The notes beneath the pieces were generated by a model. That model was given only the letters and a program-made list of their open reading frames with translations. It was not told the DNA's origin and searched no databases. Positions 1-51,120 of a DNA stretch of 64,000 nucleotides are shown here, piece after piece. Positions within the stretch are counted from its first letter, which is position 1. Every line of letters begins with the position of its first letter. The position numbers and the translations under genes are program-made. Origin of the DNA: an uncultured bacterium (GTDB taxonomy: Bacteria; Acidobacteriota; DATKUA01); the NCBI GenBank assembly GCA_965602675.1, contig CBFCZO010000008.1:4334-68333 (forward strand). Direction: 5' to 3'.

Positions 1-1
1 G

Positions 2-70: not shown

Positions 71-165
71 GCAAGAGGTGGAGGGCGCATAAGAGAATAC
101 GCGTATTGACCGGGGAAGATTGAATTAAACCACAGAGGACACAGAGGGAAAGAAGAAGAAGAGGC

Positions 166-372: not shown

Positions 373-387
373 CCGGCTCTGCGGTGA

Positions 388-1056: not shown

Positions 1057-1224
1057 CGAAGCCCCCCGTTTTTCGGATATATTTGTTTCAGGGATAACTG
1101 CGCCGCCCGTCGAAGTCAAGGGTGGTAAAAAAGCGTGAGGCAACGCACAATTATTGACCGCAAAGGCTTACGCTGGTAGTGTTACGCGAGGATTTCACAT
1201 CCCGGACGATGATCGCGGAAAGCC

Positions 1225-2043: not shown

Positions 2044-2048
2044 AACAA

Positions 2049-2561: not shown

Positions 2562-2603
2562 TTGTGGGAATCCGGTCGTGAGTAAACCGCGGGAGCGGTG
2601 CGG

Positions 2604-3563: not shown

Positions 3564-3607
3564 CAACGCTCTGATTCCCGCTACACAGTTCCGCCCGCCC
3601 GGCGGAA

Positions 3608-5107
3608 TTACCTCACGTCGTAGCGTATGAATGCGACGAAAGCCGCTGCGACGAAGACTACTGAAAGCAGTACCATAACGGCCAGATCGACCAGGGAGTT
3701 GGCAATGGACACATCGAGTGACTCTTGGCTGAACGATGTGGTATCGATGTACTGGTCCGATACGTCGATCGGCTGCCCGCTGCCGAAGCCCTGATTCAGG
3801 TACTCGGGGTGCTGCTTGATTAAGCCCGTCGCGTTCTTCGAAAAGGTCGCAACGGTTCCCCTCACGTGCTCCTGGAACACATCGTCCGACGAAAAGACTC
3901 CGCTCTTTGCCAGCCTCTGGATGCTGAACGTGAGCGCAGCAGCGGGCGAAGTGTATCTGCTGATGCTGGCCGCAAGCTGGGTCTGGACATTCTGCTTCAT
4001 GTTCATCTCCGCGACTTTCTTCATCCCTTCCTGTTGGACCTTTTGGGTGAACTCCTGATACTGGTCAGCAAGCCAACTTTGGAATTCTGCGGAAGCCTGA
4101 TCTCTCTGCTGTTCCCAAGCCCGCATTCTTTCGCGGTACTCATCGGTTACGACCACGGGCGTTTTCGGCCTGCTGGCGATCAACTGCTGCTGCAACTCCT
4201 GGACTTTGTTCCGGAGTTTCTTCATCAACTCCCCTGTGTTGGGTCCTATACTCCGCGCAAAATCCTTCTTCACTTCTTCCAGTGCCGGCACCTCGTGGAA
4301 CCACTGGGCCACCAGGACCGCCCCTCTTGGAACGATGCTGATGAAGAAGACCCAGAGCATCAGCAGAACGAGGAAAGAAACGCTCGAGCGTTTTGTGAGC
4401 GCGGAGACCATCATTCCCAGGCTGTAAAAGACTAGCAAGTAGAGTATGAAAGCGAGGAAGATGAGCCCCAGCCTAATCCAGTCCTCGCCGCTGAGCTGCA
4501 CCGCGGGGAAGAAAAACTCCAGGATCAGCATACCCATGATCAAGGGGATCATAAAGGGGATGATCAGCAGGACGAAGTTGCCTATCAGCTTGCCGATGAT
4601 GAAGGAACTCCTTTTCATCGGGTTGGAGAAATTCAGCTTCAGCGTGCCCAGCTCTTTCTCTCCGCTGATCGCATCGAAGGTAAAGAGAATGGCGAAGAGG
4701 CTGAGGATGATCTTGACGATGAAATCGAGGTCGAGCAGGCCGAAGACGGCGAGTATCGGCGTAGAGTTGTACTTGCTGACATCGAAGCTGGCGCCGGCGA
4801 TAGTATTTACATTCCCCCGCCTGGCGGCATCGCCCTCCACGCCGTTAACGAGCACTGAAAGGACGCTCGGGACGCGATAAACATACTGCCCTTTTTGGAG
4901 AAAGTCCTGCTGGTAGTTGAAAACATTCTTGAGCCTTTCCTTCTCCGCAGCCGTCTGCTGCCGGGCTTCATCGACCAACTGGGTGTAGGTAACGGCTCCT
5001 GTCATAAGGGCAGAGAGAATCAGCACCGTGCAGACGACATACGTGATAACCACTTTTGGTGTGCTGATGTTAGCCCTGATTTCTTTTCTTACGACATCCC
5101 AAATCAT
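3608..5107 (-). CDS. ABC-2-type permease paralog A1 (6 TM, two periplasmic domains, C-terminal RYDVR)
   Basis: Cytoplasmic DAISGEKELGTLKL (ABC-2/NatB-type GEKE..TL motif). About 200 aa helical insertion between TM5 and TM6 contains SPAAALTFSIQRLAKSG. Ends in FIRYDVR. I place the start at MIWDVV, which has an AAAGAGGG ribosome-binding site. Confidence 0.75.
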   Translation of the reverse strand: MIWDVVRKEIRANISTPKVVITYVVCTVLILSALMTGAVTYTQLVDEARQQTAAEKERLKNVFNYQQDFLQKGQYVYRVPSVLSVLVNGVEGDAARRGNVNTIAGASFDVSKYNSTPILAVFGLLDLDFIVKIILSLFAILFTFDAISGEKELGTLKLNFSNPMKRSSFIIGKLIGNFVLLIIPFMIPLIMGMLILEFFFPAVQLSGEDWIRLGLIFLAFILYLLVFYSLGMMVSALTKRSSVSFLVLLMLWVFFISIVPRGAVLVAQWFHEVPALEEVKKDFARSIGPNTGELMKKLRNKVQELQQQLIASRPKTPVVVTDEYRERMRAWEQQRDQASAEFQSWLADQYQEFTQKVQQEGMKKVAEMNMKQNVQTQLAASISRYTSPAAALTFSIQRLAKSGVFSSDDVFQEHVRGTVATFSKNATGLIKQHPEYLNQGFGSGQPIDVSDQYIDTTSFSQESLDVSIANSLVDLAVMVLLSVVFVAAAFVAFIRYDVR

Positions 5108-5131
5108 TGCACCACCCTCTTTCGACACCCG

Positions 5132-6553
5132 TCAACGGACGTCATAGCGTAGAAAGGCGACGAACGACGCCGCGAAGAAGACTAAAGCCAATAGTATCAG
5201 CAGGCCAATATCCCAGATCGAGCGGGAGATGGTCGTAGCGAAATCCTCTTCCTTGAACAGGAAATGGATCCTGCTTTGCTGGACCTCCAATTCCTTATCG
5301 CCCATGAAGCTCTCAAAGAACTTTTGCGGATCGGAATCGTCAATATTCTTCATCTCTTCGAAAACGTAATTCCTGAATTGCTGCTGGAAATCGCGTAGTT
5401 GGTCGATGTACTCGGTCTGGCGGGCCCAGCCGCTGCCTGCGAGGTTTTGAACCGCGAAGCTCATCGCCGAAGTCGGCGAGAGGCTGCGGGCTATCGACTC
5501 GGCCAGCACGATCTGCGCCGCCTGCTGCTGCTCATATTGCAGGTCATACTTGTCCAGAACCTGTGACTGAAATGCCGAGAGCTTCTCGAAGATGGACGTG
5601 ATCATTTCCGCAAGCTCGCCGCTTCGAGCCGCATCCGCGAATCTCGATTGGTCGTTGAACTCCTCCATCACTTCGCCGCGTTGCTGCGCGATCTCCTTCA
5701 TGGCCTTCGTCTGGAGGCTGGTGTAAGACTCATACGGCTTGAGCCGCTCCGCAGCCACAAGGCTCAACTTGGGGATAATCGTGACGAACAGCACCCAGAT
5801 CATCAGCAGCACGATGAAGCTCGTGGCAGAGCGCTGGCAGAGAGAGCTGACGAAGAGCCCGGCGGCAAAGAACACTCCGAGATAGACAACGTAGATGCCG
5901 ACAATCACCAGAAGTCGCAGCCAGGTATCGGCATTGAAGGCGCCCAGCACACCCGGATAGAACGCCGTCATGAACGCCAGGCCGATTATCATCGGCAGGA
6001 TGAAGGCGATCAGGATCACCGAATAGCCGCCAATAATCTTGCCGAGCAGGATCTTGTAGCGCGGCACTTCGTTGGCAAGCGCCTGCTTGAGCGTACCCAG
6101 CTCCTTCTCCCCGCTGATGGAGTCGTAGGTGAGCAGTATAACAAATAGGCTCAGCACGATTTTAACGACGAAGGTGATGTCGACGTTGCCGAAAACGGCG
6201 AGGATGGGAGAGACCAGATTACGGCTCTCGTCGAGGTCGGTGTCGATGTCCAGGTTAATTTCCGCCTGCCGCCCCAGGCTGTCGTCGATGCCCGTGTCGA
6301 CGATGGTCAGCACGTAGGGGACCTTTGCCTCGAACAGCCCCACGTAACCGGCATTTATCCAGTTGTTCTGGGCTGCCAACACCTCATGATTGGTCCGCAG
6401 GTGCTGCTGGGCGTCGCCGACTTTTTCCGTGTAATTCTTGCTGCCGATGATCAGGCCCGATATCACCAGCAGGATGACTACCACAAAGGTGACCACGAAC
6501 TTGAGCGTGCTGACGTTGTCCATGATCTCCTTGCGGATAATGTCCCTCAGCAT
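5132..6553 (-). CDS. ABC-2-type permease paralog B1
   Basis: Same architecture as A1: SGEKELGTLKQ, SPTSAMSFAVQNLAGSG, ends in LRYDVR. Strong ribosome-binding site GAAAGGAGTGGAAGG. Confidence 0.75.
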   Translation of the reverse strand: MLRDIIRKEIMDNVSTLKFVVTFVVVILLVISGLIIGSKNYTEKVGDAQQHLRTNHEVLAAQNNWINAGYVGLFEAKVPYVLTIVDTGIDDSLGRQAEINLDIDTDLDESRNLVSPILAVFGNVDITFVVKIVLSLFVILLTYDSISGEKELGTLKQALANEVPRYKILLGKIIGGYSVILIAFILPMIIGLAFMTAFYPGVLGAFNADTWLRLLVIVGIYVVYLGVFFAAGLFVSSLCQRSATSFIVLLMIWVLFVTIIPKLSLVAAERLKPYESYTSLQTKAMKEIAQQRGEVMEEFNDQSRFADAARSGELAEMITSIFEKLSAFQSQVLDKYDLQYEQQQAAQIVLAESIARSLSPTSAMSFAVQNLAGSGWARQTEYIDQLRDFQQQFRNYVFEEMKNIDDSDPQKFFESFMGDKELEVQQSRIHFLFKEEDFATTISRSIWDIGLLILLALVFFAASFVAFLRYDVR

Positions 6554-6631
6554 TTGCCTTCCACTCCTTTCACACCTCTCAACGTTCCCTGCCGAAATCG
6601 GAATCGCCTGATCCCGCCGTCACAACGTGGC

Positions 6632-8086
6632 TCAGCGAACGTCATAGCGAAGAAAAGCCACGATCGCCACCGCCAGGAAGATTGTGGCGGTCAAAGCCAG
6701 TATTGCGAAATCCCAAATGGAGGCTTCCACCGATTCGCCCAGCGTCTCCGCAACGTAGAATGACCGATCGGGATACACTTCCGACAGATCCAACTTCTCC
6801 ATCGAGATACCCTGACCACCCATGAGCGAATCGGGCCTATTAAAGTCCCGCGCGTAATCGGTGTAGCTTTTGATATAGTCGTCCACGCTGTCCTTGAACT
6901 GCTCATCGGATGAGTAGACGCCGGTTCTAGCCAGCCTGTCCACGGCGAAATCGAGCGCAGCCACGGGCGATGTGAGGCGGCTTAGAGTTATCGCAAGCTG
7001 GTTCTGCCTCTCCTGCTTCATCTCCTGCTCGCGGCTGATCTGGAGACCCCTTTCCGACATTTCCCGGGCGAATACGTCGTGCGCCTCTTGAATTCCTTGC
7101 AGCATCTCCTGCTGCATCTGCTGCATGTTGCTCAACCCGTCGGGGCTGTTCATTCCCGCCCTGATGAATTCAAACAGCTCCTCCACGCGCTCGCGGACGG
7201 AATTCATGAAAGCCTCCTGGCTGGAGCCGAACTCGCTGAAATATTCCTTCCTGACTTCGTCCAAAGGCGGAACAGGCTCGAGCGTCTGGGCCGTCAGCAC
7301 CGCCACCCGGGGAACCACGCTGGTGAAACACACCCACAGCATGAGCAGGATCAGGAACGAGACGACCGGCCTTTTCGTCAGCGCAGAGACCATCATCCCC
7401 ATGCTGTAGAAAACCAGGAGGTAAAGCACGAACGCAAGGGTAATCAGCAGGATTCGGATCCAATCGTCACTCGAGAAATCGATCCCGGGAGTAAATTCCA
7501 CGATCAAGAGCCCCAGGATCAACGGCAGGACAAACGGAATCAGTAACAGGATGAAATTGCCGATCAGCTTGCCGATGATGAAGGTGCCTCGCTTGAGCGA
7601 ATTGGCGAAATTCAGCTTCAGCGTTTCCTGCTCTTTCTCGCCGCTGATGGCATCGAAGGTGAATAGGATCGCGAAGAGGCTGAGAATAACCTTGACGATG
7701 AAGCTCAGGTCGAGCATCCCGAAGATGGCTAGAATCGGCGTGGAATTGAACTTGCTGACATCGAAATTCGAGCCGGTATAGAAGGTTATCCGTCCGCGCC
7801 GGGCCGCGTCGCCCTCCACTCCCGAGACTAGCACCGACAGGACGTCGGGTTCGCGATAGAGGTAAATGCCGTTCACCATGAAATCCATCCGGTAATTGAA
7901 GACGTTGCGGAGCCTGTCTTTCTCCGCAGCCGTTTGCGCAACCGCCTCCTCCTTCAGGCTAAGGTAACTCATTGCTCCGGTGATCAGCGCGGCCAGAATC
8001 AAGATCATACATACCGCATATGTGATCACCACCTTGGGGCTGGTCAGGTTGACCCGGATCTCTTTCTTAACTATCTCGAATATCAT
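6632..8086 (-). CDS. ABC-2-type permease paralog A2
   Basis: N-terminus MIFEIVKKEIRVNLTSPKVVITY closely parallels A1. Also has SGEKEQETLKL and SPVAALDFAVDRLARTG. Ends in LRYDVR. Confidence 0.75.
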   Translation of the reverse strand: MIFEIVKKEIRVNLTSPKVVITYAVCMILILAALITGAMSYLSLKEEAVAQTAAEKDRLRNVFNYRMDFMVNGIYLYREPDVLSVLVSGVEGDAARRGRITFYTGSNFDVSKFNSTPILAIFGMLDLSFIVKVILSLFAILFTFDAISGEKEQETLKLNFANSLKRGTFIIGKLIGNFILLLIPFVLPLILGLLIVEFTPGIDFSSDDWIRILLITLAFVLYLLVFYSMGMMVSALTKRPVVSFLILLMLWVCFTSVVPRVAVLTAQTLEPVPPLDEVRKEYFSEFGSSQEAFMNSVRERVEELFEFIRAGMNSPDGLSNMQQMQQEMLQGIQEAHDVFAREMSERGLQISREQEMKQERQNQLAITLSRLTSPVAALDFAVDRLARTGVYSSDEQFKDSVDDYIKSYTDYARDFNRPDSLMGGQGISMEKLDLSEVYPDRSFYVAETLGESVEASIWDFAILALTATIFLAVAIVAFLRYDVR

Positions 8087-8107
8087 CTCATCCCCTGCAC
8101 AAACGGC

Positions 8108-9559
8108 TCAGCGAACGTCATAACGGATGAATGCGACGAAGGACGCGGCGAAGAAGACTATCGACATCAGGGCCAAAACGGCCATATCGATCATCGCCCG
8201 GGAGAACACGGTGCCCAATGTCTCCTCGCGGAACTCGAAGCTTACTCTGCCAATGTCGACATCGAGCTTCTGCTTATCCATCATGTCCCACATGCTCTGG
8301 TATTCCACCGCCTCCGCTTTCTCGAAAACATAGTTCATGAAATCGATGCGGAATTTCCTCAACTGGTCGATGTACTCACGTTGCCTCGCCCATCCCGATC
8401 CGGCAAGGCTCTGCACGGCGAAGCTCATGGCGGAAGTCGGCGAGAGAAATCTTGCCATCGACTCCGCCAGCTCGATTTGTGACCGCTGTTGCCGATCGTA
8501 TTGGCGATCGTAGTAGTCCATCACTTCGCGCTGCACGTCGCCGAGTTGGCGCCAGAATTCGGTCATCATTTCCGAAATCTCGGTCGTGGGCTCCTGCTCC
8601 TCGCCGCCGCCCATGAAGGCCTGCATCATGCTGCTGTTGCGGATCTGGATGAACTTCGGCAAAAACTCGTCCATCACCGCGGCACGCTTCTCGGAGACTT
8701 CCTTGTAGGCCTTGGTCTGCAAGGCGGTGTACGATTCGTACGGCTTGATGCGCTCGGAGGTGGCTAAGCTGATGCGGGGAATGATCGTGACGAAAAGCAC
8801 CCAGATGACAAGCAGCACGACGAAGGAAGTCGAGGAGCGATGGCTGAGAGAAGAGACAAAAATCCCGAGCGAGAAAAACACCGCCAGGTAAAGCAGGTAG
8901 GCGGCGATGATGATCAGCAGGCGCCACCAAGCATCGGGTGTGAAGTCAGCCAGAACCTCATTGTAGAAACCCATCATGAAGGCCAGGCCGATGAGCAATG
9001 GCAACAGAAAGGAGAAGGCGATCACGGTGAAGCCACCCAGAATCTTGCCCAGGAGAATTTTGTAACGGGGGATATTATTCGCCAAGGCTAGCTTGAGCGT
9101 GCCTCTTTCCTTTTCCCCGCTGAGAGCATCGTAGGTAAGCAGAATGACGAAGAGCGAGAGGATTATTTTTACCACGAATGTCAGGTCGACCTCACCGAAG
9201 ACGGCAAGGATGGGCGAAACAAGGTTACGGCTTTCATCCAGCCGCGCATCGTCCAGGGTGTCGACGTAGGCGAGCCTGCCCAGGCTGTTGTCGATGCCGT
9301 TATCAACGGTGGTCAGCACAAAAGGCTTCTTAGATTCGATAACGCCGGCCCAGCCTGCGTTGAGCCAGTCGAACTGGCTCTCGAGCATCTTCTGGTTGAG
9401 CTGCCGTTGCCTATTTATTTCGCCTCGCTGTTCGAGATAATTCTTGCTACCCAGCACCAGGCCGGAGATCACCAGGACAACGACCACCAGGAATGTAAGA
9501 GCGAACTTGAGCGTGCTGACGCTGTCCCGTATCTCCTTGAGAATTACGGTCCGCAGCAT
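8108..9559 (-). CDS. ABC-2-type permease paralog B2
   Basis: N-terminus MLRTVILKEIRDSVSTLKFALTFLVVVVLVISGLVLGSKNY parallels B1. Also has SGEKERGTLKL and SPTSAMSFAVQSLAGSG. Ends in IRYDVR. Confidence 0.75.
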   Translation of the reverse strand: MLRTVILKEIRDSVSTLKFALTFLVVVVLVISGLVLGSKNYLEQRGEINRQRQLNQKMLESQFDWLNAGWAGVIESKKPFVLTTVDNGIDNSLGRLAYVDTLDDARLDESRNLVSPILAVFGEVDLTFVVKIILSLFVILLTYDALSGEKERGTLKLALANNIPRYKILLGKILGGFTVIAFSFLLPLLIGLAFMMGFYNEVLADFTPDAWWRLLIIIAAYLLYLAVFFSLGIFVSSLSHRSSTSFVVLLVIWVLFVTIIPRISLATSERIKPYESYTALQTKAYKEVSEKRAAVMDEFLPKFIQIRNSSMMQAFMGGGEEQEPTTEISEMMTEFWRQLGDVQREVMDYYDRQYDRQQRSQIELAESMARFLSPTSAMSFAVQSLAGSGWARQREYIDQLRKFRIDFMNYVFEKAEAVEYQSMWDMMDKQKLDVDIGRVSFEFREETLGTVFSRAMIDMAVLALMSIVFFAASFVAFIRYDVR

Positions 9560-9594
9560 ATTTTGCCTCCTGCAACCACCCGGAAAACAAGCCG

Positions 9595-10302
9595 TCAGGT
9601 GCGCATGTAGTCAAGGTAGAGGGCCTCGAGATCCTCGTGCTCGAGTTCTTCGGCGGTTCGCGTCATCACCAGGTTGCCCTTTTTCATGATGGCGACGCGA
9701 TCAGCGAGGCCCTTGCTGCGGAAGATGTCGTGAGTGCTCATGAAGATGCATCTTCCCTCTTCGCGCAACTCTTTGAGTAGGTGGACGAATTCATCGGCGG
9801 CCTTAGGATCGAGGCCGGATGTCGGCTCGTCGAGGATGACGACCGGGCTGTCCTTTAAGATCGCAATCGCGATACCTGTCTTCTGCCGCATGCCCTTGCT
9901 GAAGGTTTTGAGTTTACGCTCGAAAGCCTCCTCCTCAAGACCGACGCGCCTCAACGCGTTGTAATACTCCTCCCGCGAAAGGTTGCGCTTGCCTCCGAGG
10001 CGGGCGAAATAATCGAGGTTCTGCCGCGCGGAGAAGTTGGGGTAGAGCATCACGTTCTCGCTGACGAAGCTGACGTGGCGCTTCGCTTGCAGCGGGTCTT
10101 TTGTGACGTCGATATTGTTTATTCGGGCGGTGCCTTCAGAAGGCTCGATGAAGTTGAGCAGAAGGTTGATCGCAGTTGTTTTGCCGGCGCCGTTCGCACC
10201 GAGCAGGCAGAAAATCTCGCCACCTTCCACCTTGAGATTAAGGTGATCCAGCCCAAGCACTCCGTCCTCGTAGCGCTTGGTCAGGTCGATCGTCTCAAGC
10301 AC
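9595..10302 (-). CDS. ABC transporter ATP-binding protein, the single ATPase of the 4-permease operon
   Basis: Walker A GANGAGKTT, signature FSKGMRQK and Walker B VVILDEPTSGLD. First gene of the minus-strand operon. Confidence 0.9.
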   Translation of the reverse strand: MLETIDLTKRYEDGVLGLDHLNLKVEGGEIFCLLGANGAGKTTAINLLLNFIEPSEGTARINNIDVTKDPLQAKRHVSFVSENVMLYPNFSARQNLDYFARLGGKRNLSREEYYNALRRVGLEEEAFERKLKTFSKGMRQKTGIAIAILKDSPVVILDEPTSGLDPKAADEFVHLLKELREEGRCIFMSTHDIFRSKGLADRVAIMKKGNLVMTRTAEELEHEDLEALYLDYMRT

Positions 10303-15491: not shown

Positions 15492-15959
15492 ATGGCTCAA
15501 GATAATAGAGAAAAGAAACGTGCCGAGACGGTGCACCGCACCGAAATCGTCCTCCCGGGGCTGACGAACGTCTATGGCACGATGTTCGGAGGGAAGGTTC
15601 TCGAGATGATGGACGTCACCTGTGCCATCGCAGCGGCGCGGTTCTGCAGGCGCGACGTCGTCACAATCTCGTCCGAACGCGTGGACTTCAAGGTCCCAAT
15701 CCGGGCCGGACGCATAGTTGAGTTGGCCGCCCGCGTTGTTTTGACCGGACGCACCTCGATGACAGTCAAGGTGGATGTCTACAGTCAGCACTTTGCCGAG
15801 GAAAGCAAGCAGCTTTGCACAACCGGCTACTTCAACTTCGTCGCACTCGACCGCACGGGGCGTCACACCGTGCCGGTGCCCGAATTGATTGTCGAGACGG
15901 ATGAGGAGCGAGGCGACTGGGAAATCGCCGAGCAACTCCGCCACAAGCGCCAGTCGTAA
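15492..15959 (+). CDS. Acyl-CoA thioesterase (hotdog fold, YciA-like)
   Basis: Motif VYGTMFGGKVLEMMD...VTISSERVDFKVPIRAGRIVELAARVV typical of acyl-CoA hydrolases. Confidence 0.8.
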   Translation: MAQDNREKKRAETVHRTEIVLPGLTNVYGTMFGGKVLEMMDVTCAIAAARFCRRDVVTISSERVDFKVPIRAGRIVELAARVVLTGRTSMTVKVDVYSQHFAEESKQLCTTGYFNFVALDRTGRHTVPVPELIVETDEERGDWEIAEQLRHKRQS

Positions 15960-15978
15960 TCTCATCAAGACAAAAAAA

Positions 15979-16000
15979 GCGGGGGATTTTTCAATCCCCC
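15979..16000 (-). terminator. Intrinsic terminator for minus-strand transcripts (ftsAZ operon tail)
   Basis: Hairpin GGGGGATT-TTTC-AATCCCCC. On the minus strand it is followed by a T7 run (+ strand aaaaaaagc before the hairpin). Confidence 0.5.
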
Positions 16001-16323
16001 GGGCTCAGAAAGTGAAGGGAATAAGGAGCTGCTAGTATCTAGTCGGCTCCGCAGGGAGCGGAGACGGGAAGTGCTTTTTGAGTGGGCGGCCCGTCTCAAG
16101 GGCGGACCGCCCACACGGCGGCCCCTGAAATATCAAGGGTCAAACGAGAGGTGCTGCGAAAGCAACTCCCCTCACTCAACGATCTCGCACTGGCTGAACC
16201 CGCCGGAAGTGCCTGCCTCAACTGGGGGCCTATACGGGGTTTGCCTCCCGAGGACTCCACTATCTCCAGAGAACAGCCCCGAGATCGTTAAAGTTCGACT
16301 TGTTAAAGAACAAAACAACCGTC

Positions 16324-16521
16324 TCAAGCGCTGACTTTCGCGGCGGGCTCCGCCGTGCCGCCCCAAACTCCAGCGCCTGAGCCGGTCCTGCCCGGCACTT
16401 CGGCCGAAGTGCGCTTCGCGCCCAGCCCGCACAGGGCCAGCACCACCAGCCGCAGTCTGCTCCTGCGCCACTCGTTAACCGTCGAGAGAAGTCCCGACAC
16501 TCTGTCGCTTGCCTTGCTCAT
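16324..16521 (-). CDS. Possible small ORF (65 aa) whose start overlaps the ftsZ stop as ATGA
   Basis: ATG overlaps the ftsZ TGA. Product MSKASDRVSGLLSTVNEWRRSRLRLVVLALCGLGA... In GC-rich sequence this may be a spurious ORF. Confidence 0.2.
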   Translation of the reverse strand: MSKASDRVSGLLSTVNEWRRSRLRLVVLALCGLGAKRTSAEVPGRTGSGAGVWGGTAEPAAKVSA

Positions 16522-17705
16522 GCGCGCTTCTTTTCCTTGGTCAACATCCGCCGTCTCAGGTAGGCGGGGATCTTCAATTCGTCCTCGCTCAGCCTGCGCG
16601 GATTAAGCACCGTAATGCCTTCCACCCGGTTGAGTTTCCTGTGGCGAGGGACATCGACTCCGCCGGAGCTCAGGCGCTGTGCCGGATTCCCGCTCTCGCT
16701 GACGTGCCTTTGGAGGAAGTCGAGCTCCACAACTTCGTTGAACAGGGGCAGCCCGGAAGCGATCACGCTCACCCGCGTCTTGCCCTGCTTGACTCCGTTA
16801 AAGACCACGCCGAGTGCGAGCTGCGCGTCCTTGCTGAACACGCGCTGAGCCACGCCGAATGCGTTGCGCACGCCGTCCATCAGAACATCGTCGTCGATGG
16901 CGAACTGGATAAGCGCCCTCGGGGCTTTGGTGATGTCGCTCTTCATCTTGGCGAAGCGTTCCATGGCTGTCTTGAGGGCTTCGATCGCGTTGTTGCGCAT
17001 CGCGCTCACTCCAGTGGCGAAAGCGCAGAGCCCGCCCCGCGTGAGGTGGCTCTTGATCGTCCCGAAGTCGAGCAGCATGCGCTTGCTGGGCGTCAGGAAT
17101 TCGAGGATTCCGCAAACCGTCTCCATCAAGGCCGCATCGGCGCGCCTCAGAGCTTCCTTCGCCGCCATCTTTCCCTGGCCGACACCGGCCAGCATGTCGT
17201 TGCTCAGCAGGAACACCGAATCGGCGCTGCGCACAAGCGAATGGATTTTGCGCTTGGCGAGTATCGATTTGCTCTCTTCCTCGTAACCGAATGGGCGCGT
17301 GGCGATTACTATCGTGAGCGCGCTTGCCGAGCGGCTGATCTTGGAGATTTCGGGTACCAGGGCGGTTGCCGTCCCGCCGCCGAGCCCTCCAAAAATCAGG
17401 TTTGCCTTGACTCCGCTCATTAGATCGCGCACCTGCATGTTGTTTCCGCTGAGGCAGCGCTCGCCGATCTTGTCGTCGCCGCCGGTTCCGTCGCCGCCGG
17501 TGAATTCCTCGCCGAGCAGGAGCTTCTGATCGCATTCGGACTCAAACAGTCTGCCTCGGTCGGTGTCGATACCGAGGGTGGAGACCGAGTTGCCGAGAAT
17601 GTCATGCAGGCGGTCGAGCAAGGTCAGACCGCAACCGCCGACGGCAGTCACCTTGACCTGGCTCAGCCCTTCCTCTCTCGTCTCGGTATCCTCGAAAAGC
17701 TTCAT
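16518..17705 (-). CDS. ftsZ: Cell division protein FtsZ (divergent GTP-binding motifs)
   Basis: Aligns to FtsZ: VKVTAVGGCGLT (cf. IKVIGVGGGGGN); ANLIFGGLGGGTATALVPEISK...TIVIATRPFGYEE (cf. GADMVFIAAGMGGGTGTGAAPVVA...VAVVTKPFNFEG); C-terminal DELKIPAYLRRR (cf. DYLDIPAFLRKQ). Confidence 0.88.
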   Translation of the reverse strand: MKLFEDTETREEGLSQVKVTAVGGCGLTLLDRLHDILGNSVSTLGIDTDRGRLFESECDQKLLLGEEFTGGDGTGGDDKIGERCLSGNNMQVRDLMSGVKANLIFGGLGGGTATALVPEISKISRSASALTIVIATRPFGYEEESKSILAKRKIHSLVRSADSVFLLSNDMLAGVGQGKMAAKEALRRADAALMETVCGILEFLTPSKRMLLDFGTIKSHLTRGGLCAFATGVSAMRNNAIEALKTAMERFAKMKSDITKAPRALIQFAIDDDVLMDGVRNAFGVAQRVFSKDAQLALGVVFNGVKQGKTRVSVIASGLPLFNEVVELDFLQRHVSESGNPAQRLSSGGVDVPRHRKLNRVEGITVLNPRRLSEDELKIPAYLRRRMLTKEKKRA

Positions 17706-19015
17706 ATCAGCTCTCTCCCCTCGGGAACCGGCGCTCCCACCAGAGCGCTAAACCAGCAACGCGCTTTTTCAAAGGCGGTCATGCCTGCAGTTTCCATGCG
17801 CCTATTGGCGAGGATCCGCTTGCGCAGCAGGCGCAAAGTTCCCACCAGCGCGGCGCAGCCGGGATCGCTGAAGCCCATCCTCGTGCCGTTAACCGCTCGC
17901 GGATGCCCCACCTCGACGGTCCTGTCGAGAACGATCTCGGCCAGTTCCGGCAGGCCGGCCAGCCTGGCGCACCCTCCGGTCAGGATCACGCGGGAAAGCA
18001 GTTCGGGAGAGAGACCCTTGCTGATCTCCTGGCCGACGGCGTAAAGCAACTCCTGGGCGCGATCGCGCAGTACTGAGGCGATCTCTCGCGCTGACACGAG
18101 CTTCTCCACACCCAGGCCTCTCTCCTTCAGGTCAATCACTTCGTTGTAGCGGATTACCTGTGGCAGGGCGCAGCCATAGTTGTGCTTGACGTCTTCCGCA
18201 ACCGCCATGCTCTCGTTGAGGAAGATCGCCAGGTCGGAATCGAAATCCCGGCCGCCGCTGGCGATGACACCCAGATGAAGCAGCTTGCCGTGGGCGTAGA
18301 CCGCCACGTCGGTGGAATTCCCGCCCAGATCGATCACCGCGACTCCGGCTTCGGTGTTCTTGCCGAGCACCGACAGCGCTGAACTCAGCCCGGAGTAGCT
18401 CCAGGATTTGACGCTGTAGCCGCAGGACTTGAAGGCCTTTTCGATTTGCTCGAGCGCCGAGATGGGCGCGGTGACGAAGGTGATCTCTATGCCGAGCTGC
18501 TCTCCGCGCATTCCCAGGGGCGGCTCGTTGCCGCTGTAGACGGAATCGAGGCTGTAGCGGACCGGAACCACCTGCATCACATGCTCGACAAGGCTTGAAA
18601 TTTCCTCCCGCGTACGCCGGACCGCGTCGTCAACAATCCTCTGGGTCACACGGCGGCGGGCGGGGACCTTGACGTTAGCGAAATGGCTGAAGTAGGAGAT
18701 GAAGGGAGCGGAGACTGAGACATGCAGGCGCTTCGAGCGAACTCCGTTGCGGCGCCGCAGGTCGGTGACCGCGCGATCGACGGCGGCGGTAAAGCGCGCC
18801 GGATCGGTGACCGCTCCATCGCTGATTCCGAGGTTATAAGAGGAGGCGTAATCCAGCACCATCACCTCGCCTGACGGCCCTATCTTCGCCAGCAGGGCTT
18901 TGATGGTGCTGTGGCCGAGATCGACGATCAGCAGATTGTCGCCGTTGCCGCGCCTGGCCACCCCCTTCCACCTCTGGTAGGCGGACTCAAAATCGATGAC
19001 TGCGCGACGATTCAT
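17702..19015 (-). CDS. ftsA: Cell division protein FtsA (actin-like ATPase)
   Basis: Motifs LLIVDLGHSTIKALLAKI and VIDLGGNSTDVAVY. ATGA overlap with ftsZ. Confidence 0.88.
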   Translation of the reverse strand: MNRRAVIDFESAYQRWKGVARRGNGDNLLIVDLGHSTIKALLAKIGPSGEVMVLDYASSYNLGISDGAVTDPARFTAAVDRAVTDLRRRNGVRSKRLHVSVSAPFISYFSHFANVKVPARRRVTQRIVDDAVRRTREEISSLVEHVMQVVPVRYSLDSVYSGNEPPLGMRGEQLGIEITFVTAPISALEQIEKAFKSCGYSVKSWSYSGLSSALSVLGKNTEAGVAVIDLGGNSTDVAVYAHGKLLHLGVIASGGRDFDSDLAIFLNESMAVAEDVKHNYGCALPQVIRYNEVIDLKERGLGVEKLVSAREIASVLRDRAQELLYAVGQEISKGLSPELLSRVILTGGCARLAGLPELAEIVLDRTVEVGHPRAVNGTRMGFSDPGCAALVGTLRLLRKRILANRRMETAGMTAFEKARCWFSALVGAPVPEGRELI

Positions 19016-19164
19016 CGTGCTCTGCTCGCCTTTTGCCCGCGGCCCACGACTGCGAGCTGCTGCCTGGTCAGCTCCCTGATCCGCAGCAGAGTCTTTTGAA
19101 TCTCCTGCTCCATCAGGCGCGCCGCGCGGCTCGTCCGCGGCCCTCTTATTGCCGCTATTCCCAT
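19012..19164 (-). CDS. Possible small basic helical protein (50 aa), coupled to ftsA by an ATGA overlap
   Basis: MGIAAIRGPRTSRAARLMEQEIQKTLLRIRELTRQQLAVVGRGQKASRAR. Its start lies 1 nt after the ORF57 stop (TGAcATG). Alternative starts exist. Confidence 0.25.
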   Translation of the reverse strand: MGIAAIRGPRTSRAARLMEQEIQKTLLRIRELTRQQLAVVGRGQKASRAR

Positions 19165-19165
19165 G

Positions 19166-19339
19166 TCACCGGCTCTCCACCGCGGCCGGTTTGCTCTGAA
19201 CCGGTTCGCGTTCACCCGCAACCGCATGACTGCTGGAGGCATCGAGAGCGAAGATCGCCATCAGGCCGCCGGCAAGAAGCAGAGCGGCTATGGCAACAAG
19301 CAACCATTGCCCCACCTTCACCGTCACTTGCACTCTCAT
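19166..19339 (-). CDS. Small single-TM protein (57 aa), not in the ORF track; its ATG overlaps the mraZ stop (ATGA)
   Basis: My translation: MRVQVTVKVGQWLLVAIAALLLAGGLMAIFALDASSSHAVAGEREPVQSKPAAVESR*. Could be an FtsL/FtsB-like divisome component. Confidence 0.35.
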   Translation of the reverse strand: MRVQVTVKVGQWLLVAIAALLLAGGLMAIFALDASSSHAVAGEREPVQSKPAAVESR

Positions 19340-19842
19340 TGGTCTTCCTCCGCGGTGCGGTTGTCCCCGTTTATCCTTCTAACCGTTCTCTCCGCTATCT
19401 CCTCATAGCGGCTCATCTGCTCATCGAAATAACGCTCCCAGTTCTCCAGCTTCCATATCTCGATGCGGTCTTCCGCTCCGATGACGGCGACGTTGTCTCG
19501 AGGCGAAACCTCGATGTGCCGCCGGTAGGACTCGGGCAGCAGCAGGCGGCCCTGTGCGGCGACTTCCACATCGAGGCCCGTGCCGGCGATGCGCGTCAGC
19601 GCCCTGGCATCCGAAGAGCCGGGAACCAGCGGCCCGAGCCTGGAGAGCACTTCCTTCCAGCCGGAGTCCCAAGTGCCGCGCGGATAAATGGCAAGGCACT
19701 TCTCGGGCATGCGCATCATCCGGCACTTCCTGCCGTGGTTATCCAAGAGGGCGTTTAAAAGGCGCGTGGGCAACTTGATGCGTCCCTTCTCATCAAGCTG
19801 GGGGTAATACTCCCCATGGAAAGAGTTGCTATTCTCGCCCAC
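19336..19842 (-). CDS. mraZ: Transcriptional regulator MraZ
   Basis: Two MraZ repeats: FHGEYYPQLDEKGRIKLPTRLL and AAQGRLLLPESYRRHIE...VAVIGAEDRIEIWKLENWERY (cf. E. coli FRGATLVNLDSKGRLSVP / DGAGRLLIAPVLRQ...FELWDETTW). GTG start. Confidence 0.85.
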   Translation of the reverse strand: MGENSNSFHGEYYPQLDEKGRIKLPTRLLNALLDNHGRKCRMMRMPEKCLAIYPRGTWDSGWKEVLSRLGPLVPGSSDARALTRIAGTGLDVEVAAQGRLLLPESYRRHIEVSPRDNVAVIGAEDRIEIWKLENWERYFDEQMSRYEEIAERTVRRINGDNRTAEEDQ

Positions 19843-19850
19843 TTTTGGTA

Positions 19851-19909
19851 CCCTTTAGTCCCCTTTTAATCTCAGAAGATCAATCTAGTACAATTTAGTC
19901 CCCCTTTGG
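19851..19909 (-). promoter_or_regulatory. Direct repeats (GGGGACTAAAG x2, 40 bp apart) just upstream of mraZ; candidate MraZ operator or promoter element
   Basis: + strand ccctttagtcccctttt (19851-19867) and caatttagtccccctttgg (19891-19909), in the AT-rich divergent mraZ/crp promoter region. Confidence 0.3.
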
Positions 19910-20297
19910 CCCGGCGTCAAGCAAAAAAACGCTTTTTCAATTACTATTTTTTGAACATACAAGATGTTGGGGTTATTTGTGTTATTAAACACAACATGGT
20001 GTACACGCTAAAACGAAAAAATGTAGTCCGGATTGTGGATCAGGTGGTGGCTTCCGCCTCAGCCCACTATTTTCACATTTCTGCGGCAGGCGTCCGAAAT
20101 GACGAAGCGTTAAGTCAACCGTAAAACCGAATCGTCAAGATTCCTTGACACCGTATAGACATTTAGACAATTGAATCGCAGCCGAGATTCCGCCTAACCT
20201 GTTGCAATAAGAAGGCTTAACCAATATGCCTTGCCTGGCATGACACTTGCTCACTATGAGTGTGGTCCGACATAAAGCCATACAACGGGGAGCACAA

Positions 20298-20987
20298 ATG
20301 CAGACTGAGGGTAAACAGCTGAAGATCAACCTCCTCTCGGAACTGAGTTCCGAGGATATGCAAAAACTAATAAACGCTGCGGTAATCAATGATTACGATC
20401 GCCGGGAAGTGGTCTACCTGCCTGGCGACGCGCGGACTCACGTTTTCCTGGTGCTCGAGGGCATCGTCAAGCTGGCCCGACTAAGTGAGGACGGCCGCGA
20501 GATTATCATCACCACCGCGGAGGCCGGCGAGATGTTCGGCGAGTTGGCACTCGTCAACCTCGGCCTCCACGACACGATGGCCGAAATGATGAGCGACGGA
20601 AAAATCGCTGCCGTCGACGTTCACACGCTGGAAGAGATCATGGACGATGTGCCGAAGCTGTCGCTGATAATCGCCCGGGTGATGGGTTACCGTCGCATGC
20701 TGCTGGAAAGCAAGCTCGAAGACCTCGCTTTCCGCAACGTTCCGGCACGGCTGGCGAAGTTCCTGCTCGAGGAAGCAGCCAACCGCGGCAGTGGCAACGG
20801 CGGGGCGATCGTGCTACCCAGCCAGTATTCGCAACAGGAGATCGGCTCGATGATCGGCAGCACGCGGGAGACCACGAGCCACTTCCTCAACAACTTCCGG
20901 AAATCCGGATTGATCGACTTCAATAAGCGCCTCATCAGCATCCTCAACCCTGAGAAACTGGCAGAGCTGAGTGGGGCGATGGCATAG
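20298..20987 (+). CDS. Crp/Fnr-family transcriptional regulator (cNMP-binding plus HTH)
   Basis: cNMP-binding domain with C-terminal HTH RETTSHFLNNFRKSGLI. I chose the ATG at 20298 (ribosome-binding site GGGGAG) over the TTG at 20247. Confidence 0.85.
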   Translation: MQTEGKQLKINLLSELSSEDMQKLINAAVINDYDRREVVYLPGDARTHVFLVLEGIVKLARLSEDGREIIITTAEAGEMFGELALVNLGLHDTMAEMMSDGKIAAVDVHTLEEIMDDVPKLSLIIARVMGYRRMLLESKLEDLAFRNVPARLAKFLLEEAANRGSGNGGAIVLPSQYSQQEIGSMIGSTRETTSHFLNNFRKSGLIDFNKRLISILNPEKLAELSGAMA

Positions 20988-22810: not shown

Positions 22811-23812
22811 TCATTCGAGTTCCAGCTGTCTACGGGCATCCTGCAGTTTCAGAAGCTTGCCCTCTTCATCGGGGCCGGGTGCTTCCGCAAGCTCGGAGAA
22901 AGCTTTGAGGAACAGCTTTTCCCCTTTGAACTCGCGGAGCTCCTTGAGATCCTGCTCGGGGACCTCCCTACCGCCGAGCAGCAGGCGTATCAGTTCGATC
23001 TTGGAGTGATCATCGACGTGCTTGAGCTTGATGAGCCAGCGTAACATTACGCCGTACTCTTCAGCGGAGATCGACTCTTGCGCCTGGAGGGTTTTCGCCA
23101 TCTCGAACGCGGTCAGCAGTTCCGCTGCGGATTTCTCGTTGCGCACGCGACGGCCGCTGTAGAGCATCACAGCCTCTTCGCCAACGATAGTGACAAGCCC
23201 GGTAACGAAGTACCTGCGAGCCGTCTCTAATCCCACCTCGATAAAGACCTTGCGCCCCCAATACCAGGGATTGAGCAAGTTGGCGGCGCCCCAGCCGACC
23301 TGCCATAGCTTCCTAAGCGCCGGCTTGTTCATGACGAACTCGGTGACCGGATGCTGGCGCACCGCATCGTAGCCTTTTTTAAGGCTTAGAATTGTGGCGA
23401 CGTCGAGGCCACGGAACTTGTTAATCAGCGGCTTGTCGAGGATCTCCTTCAGCCTCTGTCCCACGCGCTCGTTTAATTCCAGCAGGCCGTCGATGTTGGC
23501 CTTGTATTGGGGTTCCTTCTCATCGGGATAGTATACCGACGCAATCTTTTCGATCACTTCGAACGAGATCTGGGAGACCGCCCGCGGATTGAGTTGCATA
23601 TCCTCGCCGAAGCGGCCCCAGATGTGGCGCCGGTAAGTCTTGAGGAGCTCGTAGGCTTCCTTGTCCTTCTCGGTCGGCATGTCGACTATCCTGACCGGCA
23701 TGCGGTCGATCGAGCGCTCCACGCGCTTCTTCCGCACCCAGCGCCACAACCAACTCAAGAGAACTATCGCCAGGACCGCCCCGACGAGAATCGCTATCTG
23801 CTCGATTTGCAT
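22811..23812 (-). CDS. Hypothetical membrane-anchored protein (N-terminal TM), downstream of rlmN
   Basis: MQIEQIAILVGAVLAIVLLSWLWRWVRKK then a ~300 aa soluble domain with no recognisable family. An alternative TTG start at 23860 overlaps rlmN. Confidence 0.5.
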   Translation of the reverse strand: MQIEQIAILVGAVLAIVLLSWLWRWVRKKRVERSIDRMPVRIVDMPTEKDKEAYELLKTYRRHIWGRFGEDMQLNPRAVSQISFEVIEKIASVYYPDEKEPQYKANIDGLLELNERVGQRLKEILDKPLINKFRGLDVATILSLKKGYDAVRQHPVTEFVMNKPALRKLWQVGWGAANLLNPWYWGRKVFIEVGLETARRYFVTGLVTIVGEEAVMLYSGRRVRNEKSAAELLTAFEMAKTLQAQESISAEEYGVMLRWLIKLKHVDDHSKIELIRLLLGGREVPEQDLKELREFKGEKLFLKAFSELAEAPGPDEEGKLLKLQDARRQLELE

Positions 23813-23835
23813 TTTTCTGTTCCCGTTAACATATC

Positions 23836-24921
23836 TTACTCGACAGCCAGTTGCCCGCAAGCCGCCGACAACTCACTACCACGGCTGCGCCTGACAGTGC
23901 AACTGATGCCGGCTTTAACCATCTCACTGAGAAAAGCGTCGATCACCGCCTCGCCCGGAGATTCGAACGGCAATCCATCGCATTCATTGTAAGGGATCAG
24001 ATTCACCTTCACCCGCAAGCCTCGCAGCAAGTCTGCGAGTTTCCTTGCCTGCGCCGGGCTGTCGTTTACTCGGTTGATCAAAACATATTCTATCGTCAAT
24101 CGCTCCCGCTTCAGCACCTCCCTGGGCAGGCTTCGCAAAACCGCCATCAGCTCGGTAAGCGGGTGCCTGCGGGCAATCGGCATCAAACTTTCCCTCAATT
24201 CCTGATCGGGAGCATTGAGCGAAATGGCAAGCCGGGGCGCCCGTGGAAGGTTATCAGCCGAGAACAGCCTGCGGATTCCTTCGGGGATACCCGCCGTAGA
24301 TATAGCTATTCTCCTCATCGGCAGCGCCAGGCCGTGAGGATCGTTAAAAATCTCGAGCGCGCGCAGCACAGCATCCAGATTGAGCAGCGGTTCCCCCATG
24401 CCCATGAGGACGATGTTTACCCACAGAGGTCTCTGCGGAATCCGCTTCAGCATCAACACAACCTGGGCAACGATCTCCGCCGCCTCGAGGTTGCGATGCA
24501 GCCCCATTGTGGCGGTCTTGCAGAAAACGCATCCAAGCGAGCAGCCCACCTGCGACGAAACGCAGAGACTGATTCCGCCGCCTTCCTCGTCAGGCATGGC
24601 CACGCACTCGATCGCCTCGCCGTCGTCCAGCGCCAGGCGGTATTTGACGGTCCCGTCGCCGGTTGCGACTTCGTGATCTATTTTCGGGAGATCGAATAAG
24701 AATAAACTCGAGATGCTCTCTCTCAGGCCGGCGGGTATGCTGGTCATCGATTTCGGATCAATAATCAGCTTCTCGTACAACCAGGAGAAAATCTGGTCGG
24801 CACGGTAGCGAGGCGTACCGAAAACATTCAGCCTGGATGAGAGCTCTTCGTGAGTGAGACCGAAGATGGATTCCTTGCGCGTCATGCGGACAATGCTAGC
24901 ACGCACCTCTCGGAGCCACAA
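23836..24921 (-). CDS. rlmN: 23S rRNA m2A2503 methyltransferase RlmN (radical SAM)
   Basis: CVSSQVGCSLGCVFCKT (CxxxCxxC); ...GMGEPLLN; ~360 aa, RlmN/Cfr family. Confidence 0.9.
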   Translation of the reverse strand: MWLREVRASIVRMTRKESIFGLTHEELSSRLNVFGTPRYRADQIFSWLYEKLIIDPKSMTSIPAGLRESISSLFLFDLPKIDHEVATGDGTVKYRLALDDGEAIECVAMPDEEGGGISLCVSSQVGCSLGCVFCKTATMGLHRNLEAAEIVAQVVLMLKRIPQRPLWVNIVLMGMGEPLLNLDAVLRALEIFNDPHGLALPMRRIAISTAGIPEGIRRLFSADNLPRAPRLAISLNAPDQELRESLMPIARRHPLTELMAVLRSLPREVLKRERLTIEYVLINRVNDSPAQARKLADLLRGLRVKVNLIPYNECDGLPFESPGEAVIDAFLSEMVKAGISCTVRRSRGSELSAACGQLAVE

Positions 24922-49045: not shown

Positions 49046-49047
49046 AT

Positions 49048-51111: not shown

Positions 51112-51120
51112 ACCCTCCGT

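Follow-up and report, generated by a model that had tools for sequence, protein, structure and literature searches.

A reduced mraZ–ftsA–ftsZ unit with a derived FtsZ family, three orphan small-protein families and an unclassified structured RNA in an uncultured bacterial clade

A 64,000-nucleotide stretch of contig CBFCZO010000008.1 (assembly GCA_965602675.1) from an uncultured bacterium, the whole of which is hereafter called the window, carries on its minus strand a reduced form of the dcw (division and cell-wall) cluster: a single compact unit, extending from position 19920 to position 15980, in which a promoter is followed by mraZ, ORF57, ORF50, ftsA, ftsZ, ORF65 and a terminator. The usual dcw cluster consists of 15–17 genes, and in Escherichia coli it has the order mraZ-mraW-ftsL-ftsI-murE-murF-mraY-murD-ftsW-murG-murC-ddlB-ftsQ-ftsA-ftsZ. 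The new parts of the reduced cluster are a derived FtsZ family, three orphan families of small proteins and an unclassified structured RNA. The best-supported account of its origin is that the operon has lost the internal dcw genes and has gained small components specific to the lineage. With a probability of roughly two-thirds, we consider the unit to be the main FtsA–FtsZ division operon of an uncultured clade, placed under the control of MraZ.

The initial annotation had recognized here a minimal cluster running from mraZ to ftsA-ftsZ with overlapping, translationally coupled junctions, and both the listing of open reading frames (ORFs) and our reading of the DNA bear this out; all of its genes and every junction overlap are present as it described them, on the minus strand, and its outer coordinates coincide with the promoter (19920..19892) and the terminator (16001..15980). 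The unit opens with mraZ (19842..19336; 168 aa, GTG start) and continues through ORF57 (19339..19166), ORF50 (19164..19012), ftsA (19015..17702; 437 aa) and ftsZ (17705..16518; 395 aa) to ORF65 (16521..16324), whose start is coupled to the ftsZ stop codon. ATGA overlaps join mraZ to ORF57, ORF50 to ftsA, ftsA to ftsZ and ftsZ to ORF65, the junction between ORF57 and ORF50 being TGAcATG, and a purine-rich, Shine-Dalgarno-like tract lies ahead of each start codon. Since there is one promoter, one terminator and a chain of overlapping start and stop codons, the genes can be read as a single transcription unit, in which translational coupling would keep the products in fixed ratios. The GC content of the unit is 0.60–0.62, against a window mean of ~0.57, and reveals no anomaly of composition. 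The ATGA overlap of ftsA and ftsZ is retained in nine of ten related loci (loci of relatives are designated L001, L004 and so on), and gene order is constant in the relatives wherever a contig reaches far enough to display it; together these observations indicate that the arrangement is not due to chance. A longer, 76-aa reading of ORF50 (start 19242) was considered and rejected: its N-terminal extension shares only ~65% identity with that of L001, as against 89% for the ORF57 frame that it overlaps, so the extension is not conserved as protein and the 50-aa form is the gene.

The sigma-70-type promoter, TTGACG-17-TAAATT, has a T-rich tract on its 5′ side and is the sole promoter-like site detected in 15900–20300. 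TTGAC and TAAATT/CAAAAT stand at the same place 5′ of mraZ in L001, L004, L005, L007, L008, L009, L011 and L012, and the T-rich tract upstream of them is also conserved in relatives. Between 19838 and 19903 we read a series of minus-strand boxes that resemble MraZ operators and to which MraZ may be expected to bind; they have the core G(G/T)(G/T)AC or GTGGG and a 10-nt spacing. Two of them lie over the −10 hexamer (19902–19898 and 19892–19888) and three reach into the mraZ start codon (19862–19858, 19852–19848 and 19842–19838). The sequence GGGGACTAAA occurs exactly twice in the 64 kb, both times within these boxes, and comparable boxes with a 10-nt period are found 5′ of mraZ in all relatives. 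Published MraZ operators contain 3–4 GTG(G/T) boxes with 6-nt spacers, and in Mycoplasma genitalium the transcription start lies inside box 1 (PMC12957436). The protein itself matches Pfam MraZ (PF02381) in two stretches (E=2.4e-24), and mraZ is present in every relative. Its TIGR00242 score of 75 bits is under the equivalog cut-off of 98, and both DNA-binding half-motifs are kept, KGR in QLDEKGRIKLP and QGR in AAQGRLLLP. Two repeats with basic motifs, the position of first gene and the repeated upstream boxes mark the product, as judged from its sequence, as a divergent MraZ. Because the KGR and QGR motifs are kept and periodic boxes stand at the promoter, autorepression is likely: MraZ, bound to the boxes that cover the −10 element and the ribosome-binding site, would repress its own operon.

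A gene for a Crp/Fnr-family regulator (20298..20987, plus strand; Pfam cNMP_binding and HTH_Crp_2) is divergent from mraZ and adjacent to it, and this is so in every relative long enough to show the region; it may co-regulate the division operon. The intergenic region between the two genes also contains a perfect palindrome, TTGTGTT-TAAT-AACACAA at 19977–19994, which resembles a Crp/Fnr site and has no obvious conservation upstream in the relatives.

A protein search with the ftsZ product returned a family of ~21 clusters, 47–100% identical, followed by a sharp fall to canonical FtsZ at ~27% identity. The family forms one long-branch group; four canonical FtsZ proteins from different phyla are mutually 45–54% identical. 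The TIGR00065 score of the window protein, 156 bits, lies below the equivalog cut-off of 295, and in Pfam the Tubulin/FtsZ domain is found with E=4e-23 and FtsZ_C only with E=6e-4, under its own cut-off. The strong sequence matches in the PDB are nevertheless all FtsZ (E=1e-38, residues 14–319). An AlphaFold2 model, built from the family alignment, has a core with a predicted local distance difference test score above 90, a disordered linker at residues 328–371 and then a C-terminal helix. The 50 best fold matches listed for this model are all FtsZ, with target TM-scores of 0.76–0.93 (0.88–0.93 for the bacterial proteins) and root-mean-square deviations of 2.2–4.0 Å, and the model thus assigns the product to the FtsZ fold. 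The L001 member of the family, 90% identical to the window protein, bears in GenBank the name “hypothetical protein” (HUX07178.1, locus tag VMX35_07655), a label that follows from an FtsZ score under the model cut-off. Our literature search found no description of a divergent FtsZ in the Acidobacteriota.

The divergence extends to the loops that define the protein, and the window protein departs from the canonical FtsZ motifs in the tubulin signature, in the T1 loop and in the T7 synergy loop. Across nearly all of the 12 family members compared, the T1 loop GGGGxN has become GGCG(L/M/I) and the tubulin signature GGGTGTG has become GGGTATA (P0018 and P0012 differ slightly). In a canonical filament, the T7 loop enters the pocket of the next subunit and triggers GTP hydrolysis. 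Its sequence GxxNxDxxD is replaced in the family by KxxLxDxxT/S/A/I, where K is the window residue; the positions of E. coli N207, D209 and D212 correspond to L211, D213 and T216 of the window protein, so that only the equivalent of D209 is kept. N207 is replaced by L throughout the family (by Q in one member), and D212 by T, S, A or I in 12 of 12. These three residues are highly conserved in FtsZ (PMC8456036), and the D212A mutant of the E. coli protein keeps 7% of the wild-type GTPase activity (PMC8142252). The family-wide substitution of T7 residues, taken with the D212A data, suggests a GTP turnover that is slow or differently activated; with the N207 and D212 equivalents lost, filament dynamics too would probably be slow or under a different control.

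The far C-terminus is intact. The peptide LKIPAYLRRRM is exact in 10 of the 12 members, its core PA(Y/F)(L/M)R is found in all 12, and it aligns with the canonical FtsA/ZipA-binding motif (I/T)PA(Y/F)LR; it is predicted to bind FtsA. The distribution of constraint between the two domains is inverted. For the N-terminal GTPase domain, identity is 59% within the family, 54% among the four canonical proteins and 28% between the two groups; for the C-terminal domain the corresponding values are 78%, 45% and 21%. As the C-terminal domain is so unusually conserved within the family, the pattern points to a strongly constrained interaction surface on it. FtsA, an actin-like protein, passes its equivalog test: TIGR01174 gives 210 bits, over the cut-off of 176, and Pfam gives FtsA with E=2e-25 and SHS2_FTSA with E=1e-6. 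The SHS2 (1C) insert is present, and at the C-terminus an amphipathic segment, FEKARCWFSALV, is conserved and predicted to bind the membrane; the protein's length is exactly 437 aa in nine of ten loci, and the marks of FtsA membership are all present. FtsA would then hold filaments of FtsZ at the membrane, by way of the LKIPAYLRRRM peptide of FtsZ and the amphipathic tail of FtsA itself.

The first two of the small proteins lie between mraZ and ftsA. The initial annotation described ORF57 as a protein with a single transmembrane helix and ORF50 as a short basic helical peptide, and both descriptions hold. ORF57 is a small bitopic membrane protein with a short basic N-terminus, one transmembrane helix WLLVAIAALLLAGGLMAIFAL and a variable tail of ~24 aa; an Asp directly after the helix is invariant in the family and a Trp at its start nearly so, the Kyte-Doolittle maximum over 19 residues is 2.5–2.8, and the tail looks non-helical, with no coiled coil after the membrane helix. 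A profile search of 5.8 billion proteins gave a family of 13 proteins, 49–59 aa long, with no Pfam match, and HMMER, run exhaustively on 1.84 billion representatives, added a few further small relatives in the same range of length. Three long matches (484–997 aa) covered only profile positions 27–49, in 5–9 repeated stretches, and were discarded as low-complexity noise. ORF50 is very basic, with a net charge of +4 to +9, and forms an amphipathic helix with a hydrophobic moment of 0.62–0.73 around the conserved core L-x-E-x-E-I-E-K/R-T-x-L-R-I-R-E-L. Since hydropathy reveals no transmembrane, hydrophobic or export segment, it is most likely cytoplasmic; neither the family scans (Pfam, NCBIfam) nor a PDB profile search gave a match.

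Homologues of both genes occur in L001, L005/L006, L007, L008, L012 and L013. In a neighbor-joining (NJ) tree of FtsZ, without bootstrap, the lineages with both form one crown group, and ORF50 is limited to this group (the window, L001, L005–L008, L012 and L013). L011 has the transmembrane gene only, without ORF50, and in L004, L009, L042 and L044 neither is present and the gap between mraZ and ftsA is 29–39 nt. Conservation of the small ORFs in relatives had been set as a test by the initial annotation, and they pass it. By the Nei-Gojobori method and for the closest pair, the window and L001, the ratio of nonsynonymous to synonymous substitution rates (dN/dS) is 0.11 for ORF57 and 0.08 for ORF50, like that of the flanking genes (mraZ 0.07, ftsA 0.075, ftsZ 0.096). 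These comparisons indicate that all six ORFs of the unit are under purifying selection and that ORF57 and ORF50 are real genes. By the homology searches, the two are orphan families unrelated to FtsL or FtsB. Their products could have come later, as accessory modulators or anchors that only some lineages possess, ORF57 as a membrane peptide and ORF50 as a basic cytoplasmic helix.

The third small protein, ORF65, is the sole one present in every relative in which the region is readable. Its homologue overlaps or abuts the ftsZ stop in every readable locus, including the most distant (L004, L009, L010, L011 and L044). The N-terminal motif (D/N)R(V/I)xGxLS is conserved, and the stretch behind it is basic and either hydrophobic or amphipathic: in the crown group the basic stretch leads into a short hydrophobic run, and in the sister lineages it takes the form of a basic, amphipathic helix that terminates in ..KAS. 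The dN/dS is 0.38 between the window and L001 and 0.16 between L004 and L009, and no family (Pfam, NCBIfam) or PDB match was obtained. As the only small protein universally linked to the FtsZ of the clade, ORF65 is the best candidate for a direct partner; it probably binds FtsZ or FtsA, and the constrained C-terminal domain of FtsZ is a candidate surface. A small protein of this kind has a precedent in MciZ of Bacillus subtilis, a 40-aa FtsZ-binding peptide (PMC8456036). Like the MciZ-type modulators of FtsZ/FtsA, ORF65 and ORF50 are basic, of 40–80 aa and genetically tied to ftsZ/ftsA, and direct binding is plausible. They have no sequence similarity to such modulators, however, and translational coupling ties their expression to that of ftsZ, not to stress or to sporulation, a pattern more suggestive of a constitutive partner than of an inhibitor.

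The ~320 nt that separate the stop codon of ORF65 from the terminator are non-coding and contain a structured RNA element of ~300 nt (16002..16300, minus strand). It is conserved at the nucleotide level across seven lineages whose protein genes have saturated synonymous sites, and U-G wobbles place it on the minus (ftsZ) strand. A multi-helix domain on the 5′ side is succeeded by the core, and the CU-rich tract UUCCCUUCAC comes last, ahead of the terminator. The core (~16060–16142) consists of hairpin A (CCCUUGA..UCAGGGG), a single-stranded invariant CCGCCG and a covarying hairpin B, whose arms differ completely between lineages but remain complementary; no position of the dodecamer CAGGGGCCGCCG varies. 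RNAalifold predicts 69 pairs. In the alignment, 90% of cells pair, versus 42–55% when the partners are slid by 1–3 columns, 18 pairs are altered on both sides versus 4–10 in the slid controls, and none of 500 shuffles attains the observed values; these statistics come from only seven sequences, with the structure taken from the same alignment. All 11 lineages have the core, even the most distant of them, and its folding z-scores lie between −3.0 and −4.7; the element lies downstream of ftsZ in the window, L001, L004, L005, L007–L013, L026, L029, L033 and L044. An exact-pattern scan of the JGI metagenomes returned 29 loci, of which four were true copies, all from this clade and all adjoining the ftsZ unit. 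In what was searched, the RNA occurs only in this clade and always beside ftsZ.

The unit ends in an intrinsic terminator, a hairpin with a T-run, and a GC-rich hairpin with a T-run also ends the element in L001, L005, L007, L008, L011, L012 and L044. As neither the promoter scan nor inspection of the sequence revealed a convincing separate promoter for the RNA, the simplest reading is that it is a 3′ untranslated region, possibly processed, the alternative being a small RNA. No Rfam family reaches its gathering threshold on the element, and none is above threshold in a scan at E<=10. The best sub-threshold scores, ncS16 (26 vs 48 bits) and mmgR (19 vs 41 bits), cover only the CU-rich tract and the terminator (15971–16050); these two RNAs likewise have a C/U-rich tract before a terminator hairpin, a hint at a 3′ module like that of small RNAs. 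A structured RNA downstream of ftsZ in Fibrobacter, the ftsZ-DE motif, is said to have been described by Weinberg et al. in 2017. The element presented here resembles it as a conserved structured RNA directly downstream of an ftsZ transcription unit, but sequence, structure and host clade differ, and neither this motif nor any other family came above threshold when Rfam was scanned at E<=10; a literature search for the motif brought up unrelated papers only.

Together with its neighborhood (Crp, RlmN, SMC), the unit is found in ~15 metagenomic contigs of one uncultured clade. The neighborhood, which comprises the Crp-family regulator, RlmN with an accompanying uncharacterized protein, a 4HBT thioesterase and SMC, is seen in L001, L004–L013, L026, L029, L033, L042 and L044; in the relatives, rlmN and the uncharacterized membrane protein are upstream and smc and/or the 4HBT gene downstream. 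This pattern indicates that unit and housekeeping neighborhood have been inherited vertically across the clade, and the synteny with core genes, together with the unremarkable composition, argues against a mobile or accessory copy. The L001 relative is a metagenome-assembled genome (MAG) labeled Acidobacteriota by its submitter, and the nearest named RlmN relatives outside the clade, at 44–46% identity, are those of bacterium HR11, the Vicinamibacterales, the Terriglobia and other Acidobacteriota; the locus of bacterium HR11 has no shared synteny. An affiliation of the clade with the Acidobacteriota is probable.

What the unit lacks is as distinctive as what it contains. A Pfam survey of essentially all ORFs of at least 150 aa in the 64-kb window found no mraW, ftsL, ftsI, mur, mraY, ftsW, ddl or ftsQ gene, and none appeared among the genes called within 10 kb on either side of the related loci; mraW (Methyltransf_5) in particular is absent from the cluster, from the window and from the flanks of the relatives. 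The initial annotation had set itself the test that no mraW-ftsI-mur genes should lie directly outside as part of the same cluster, and none is seen in the window or in the flanks of its relatives. The cluster is instead surrounded by unrelated genes on both strands, over 16 kb on one side and 44 kb on the other, among them genes for ABC-2 transporters, Def, Fmt, SMC, a 4HBT thioesterase, the Crp-family regulator, a chemoreceptor, RlmN, a GT4 glycosyltransferase, citrate synthase, SPFH proteins, a GGDEF protein and hydrogenase-, NuoF- and formate-dehydrogenase-like redox proteins. The genes for peptidoglycan synthesis and for the late divisome are either elsewhere in the genome or lost.

Compared with the dcw cluster of E. 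coli, the unit has kept both extremities: mraZ comes first, with boxes at a 10-nt spacing, ftsA and ftsZ come last and in the same order, and the FtsZ C-terminal peptide and the FtsA C-terminal amphipathic segment are shared. The twelve internal genes, by contrast, are absent from the cluster and from the 64-kb window, FtsZ is only ~27% identical with a substituted T7 loop, and the space between mraZ and ftsA holds small genes unrelated to FtsL or FtsQ. A closer parallel is offered by the Mollicutes, where the reduced cluster of M. genitalium is mraZ-mraW-MG_223/ftsA-ftsZ (PMC8475190). There, too, only a regulatory head and an FtsA/FtsZ tail are left, with mur, ftsI, ftsW, ftsL and ftsQ missing, MraZ boxes are found upstream (PMC12957436) and FtsZ is atypical (PMC8475190; bioRxiv 10.1101/2025.09.01.673419). 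The differences are that mraW is missing here as well, so that the gene set mraZ-mraW-ftsA-ftsZ is not matched, that the bacteria are free-living with a large genome (a 4.05-Mb contig in L004) of ~57% GC, and that three orphan proteins and an RNA have been added.

The initial annotation saw in ORF57 and ORF50 together a resemblance to a split or frameshifted FtsL/FtsB-like component of the divisome, and proposed that their junction be examined for a frameshift. On that reading, one FtsL/FtsB/DivIC-like protein would have been divided by a frameshift, whether a fault of sequencing, a mutation of recent date or a programmed shift. ORF57 does occupy the usual place of ftsL, downstream of mraZ(-mraW), and an artificial fusion of ~107 aa has an N-terminal transmembrane helix and then a helical segment, much as FtsL and FtsB do; we nonetheless hold the idea to be highly improbable. 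The split is seen in every locus with both genes, and the frame of ORF50 relative to ORF57 is +1 in the window, L001 and L008 and +2 in L005 and L007, a difference among relatives that speaks against both an assembly error and a conserved programmed frameshift. Each ORF has a start codon and a purine-rich, Shine-Dalgarno-like tract of its own, the relatives of ORF57 among the 1.84 billion representatives are all small, L011 has the transmembrane gene alone, and L004, L009, L042 and L044 are without either gene. FtsL, FtsB and DivIC combine in one chain an N-in transmembrane helix and a periplasmic coiled coil, a layout found in neither ORF57 nor ORF50; the ORF50 helix belongs to another polypeptide, one with no transmembrane or export segment. 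No Pfam match to FtsL, DivIC or FtsB at E<=10 was obtained with ORF57, with ORF50 or with ORF57+ORF50 fusions from four loci, PDB-chain profile searches with ORF57 and ORF50 gave no match, the fused-family profile reached in hhalign 0.3% against E. coli FtsB and 0.1% against FtsL (with E. coli sequences entered by hand), and NCBIfam and word-index searches likewise gave no FtsL/FtsB/DivIC homology, although tests of this kind are low-powered for families so short and divergent. The variable frame offset, the null searches and the sister lineages without the genes together contradict the split component. Alternatively, ORF57 by itself could be a vestige of ftsL and not a new gene, the membrane helix remaining after the deletion of mraW...ftsQ. 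It is small and bitopic, probably N-in like FtsL, and lies directly after mraZ, while FtsL families are so divergent that they are split across many orthologous groups (PMC8871954); yet it has no detectable sequence or profile similarity to any FtsL or FtsB, it lacks the coiled-coil part that carries FtsL function, there is no FtsQ partner nearby, and it is dispensable in the clade, being absent from L004, L009, L042 and L044, of which only L044 is near the base of the NJ tree, so that a later gain fits at least as well. We consider such a vestige decidedly unlikely, and the chance left to a very old relationship between ORF57 and FtsL reflects the difficulty of detecting short families. Least probable of all is that the small ORFs are chance open frames, not expressed as proteins. 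They are short (50–65 aa) and without a known family, and the constraint on ORF65 in the closest pair is weaker than on the others; but ORF57 and ORF50 have the same dN/dS as the essential genes on their flanks, coupling and frames are retained down to 61% FtsZ identity for ORF57/ORF50 and down to 47% for ORF65, conservation is at the amino-acid level (the transmembrane helix, the invariant Asp, the DRVxGxLS motif), and other pipelines have independently called the small ORFs as genes in relatives.

Several points weigh against our interpretation of the whole unit as the main, MraZ-controlled division operon of the clade. The degenerate T7 loop and the sub-cut-off scores of FtsZ and MraZ would also fit a specialized paralogue; the roles given to the small proteins and the RNA are read from their position, coupling, composition and conservation; dN/dS can be trusted for the closest pairs only, with dS above 1 (saturated) in most others; the order of gain and loss of the small ORFs depends on the NJ tree without bootstrap; the taxonomy depends on a submitter's MAG label and the nearest named RlmN relatives, and one family member is labeled Chlorobiales; and the gene survey spans the window and up to 10 kb on either side in the relatives. 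It is accordingly conceivable, though unlikely, that the unit is a second, specialized FtsA/FtsZ pair, like the additional FtsZ paralogues that some bacteria have, and that a canonical dcw cluster lies elsewhere in the genome. An FtsZ score of 156 against 295 bits, a MraZ also below its cut-off, a T7 loop without two of its three conserved polar residues and the lack of partner divisome genes nearby would suit such a pair. On the other side, mraZ with MraZ-type boxes is the normal head of a primary cluster, FtsA is over its equivalog cut-off, the vertically inherited housekeeping neighborhood (smc, rlmN) is present in all relatives, and the 64-kb window holds no second tubulin-family gene. Known accessory FtsZ paralogues, moreover, are often without the C-terminal FtsA-binding peptide, which is retained here. 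A clade that has given up peptidoglycan synthesis, as the Mollicutes have, appears to us no more probable than a specialized pair. It would explain at once the short dcw cluster and the fast evolution of FtsZ; the nearest reduced cluster, mraZ-mraW-ftsA-ftsZ, is that of the wall-less Mollicutes with their atypical FtsZ (PMC8475190; bioRxiv 10.1101/2025.09.01.673419), and no mur, fts or penicillin-binding-protein genes are found beside the unit in the 64 kb or in the flanks of ~12 relatives. But many walled bacteria hold ftsZ apart from the mur genes; the cyanobacteria, for example, are walled and have a fully dispersed dcw cluster (PMC8871954), and the absence of mur genes from the cluster hence does not show an absence of peptidoglycan. 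The Acidobacteria, besides, are described as ordinary diderms with peptidoglycan (PMC8871954), and a genome of ~4 Mb or more is not a reduced one.

The interpretation as the main division operon can be carried further, although only speculatively. The clade might possess a remodeled Z-ring, in which the catalytic loop of FtsZ is disabled, filament turnover depends on ORF65 as a new partner (with ORF57 and ORF50 in the crown group), the ring is uncoupled from FtsQLB-FtsWI, peptidoglycan has possibly been lost, and the operon has a regulatory RNA of its own. We consider this combination rather doubtful as a whole; if true, it would be the first of its kind known, outside the Mollicutes and the PVC superphylum, from a bacterium that is free-living and whose genome is large.

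The surroundings of the unit show some further features. A protein of ~345 aa (22811–23860, minus strand) with an N-terminal transmembrane helix and no known domain always comes after rlmN (23836–24921, minus strand) in the clade, and it is duplicated in L004 (4698–6885) and in L009. The gene in that place in E. coli is rodZ; a RodZ-like identity was considered for the protein and dropped, as it has no RodZ-type domain and no Pfam support. Four tandem paralogous genes for ABC-2-type permeases (3608–10302, minus strand; 473–506 aa, two of them with DUF3526) stand beside one ABC ATPase gene, and the permease block is also near the division operon in L004. A redox cluster (47311–56596, minus strand) encodes Fe-only-hydrogenase-like, NuoF-like flavoprotein, molybdopterin/NuoG-like and GltD-like Fe-S flavoprotein components, and points to an anaerobic way of life with cycling of hydrogen or formate. 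In L012, positions 1–6128 carry a type I-E CRISPR-Cas operon (Cse1/Cse2, Cas7, Cas5, Cas6e, Cas1) beside the Crp gene in place of the rlmN block. A tRNA-Thr(CGU) gene (47046–47120, plus strand) is the only RNA gene of the window recognized by standard tools.

The reduced unit touches on the questions of how much of the divisome is needed and of what role FtsZ has beyond organizing septal wall synthesis, which have been studied so far mainly in the Mollicutes and in engineered minimal cells. The clade offers a natural second case of a stripped-down division operon, in free-living bacteria with a genome of ~4 Mb. Because standard annotation misses its FtsZ, surveys that rely on it would score the clade as lacking the protein. 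The clade also presents candidates for new regulators of FtsZ and FtsA in its three small orphan proteins and in the RNA linked to the operon.

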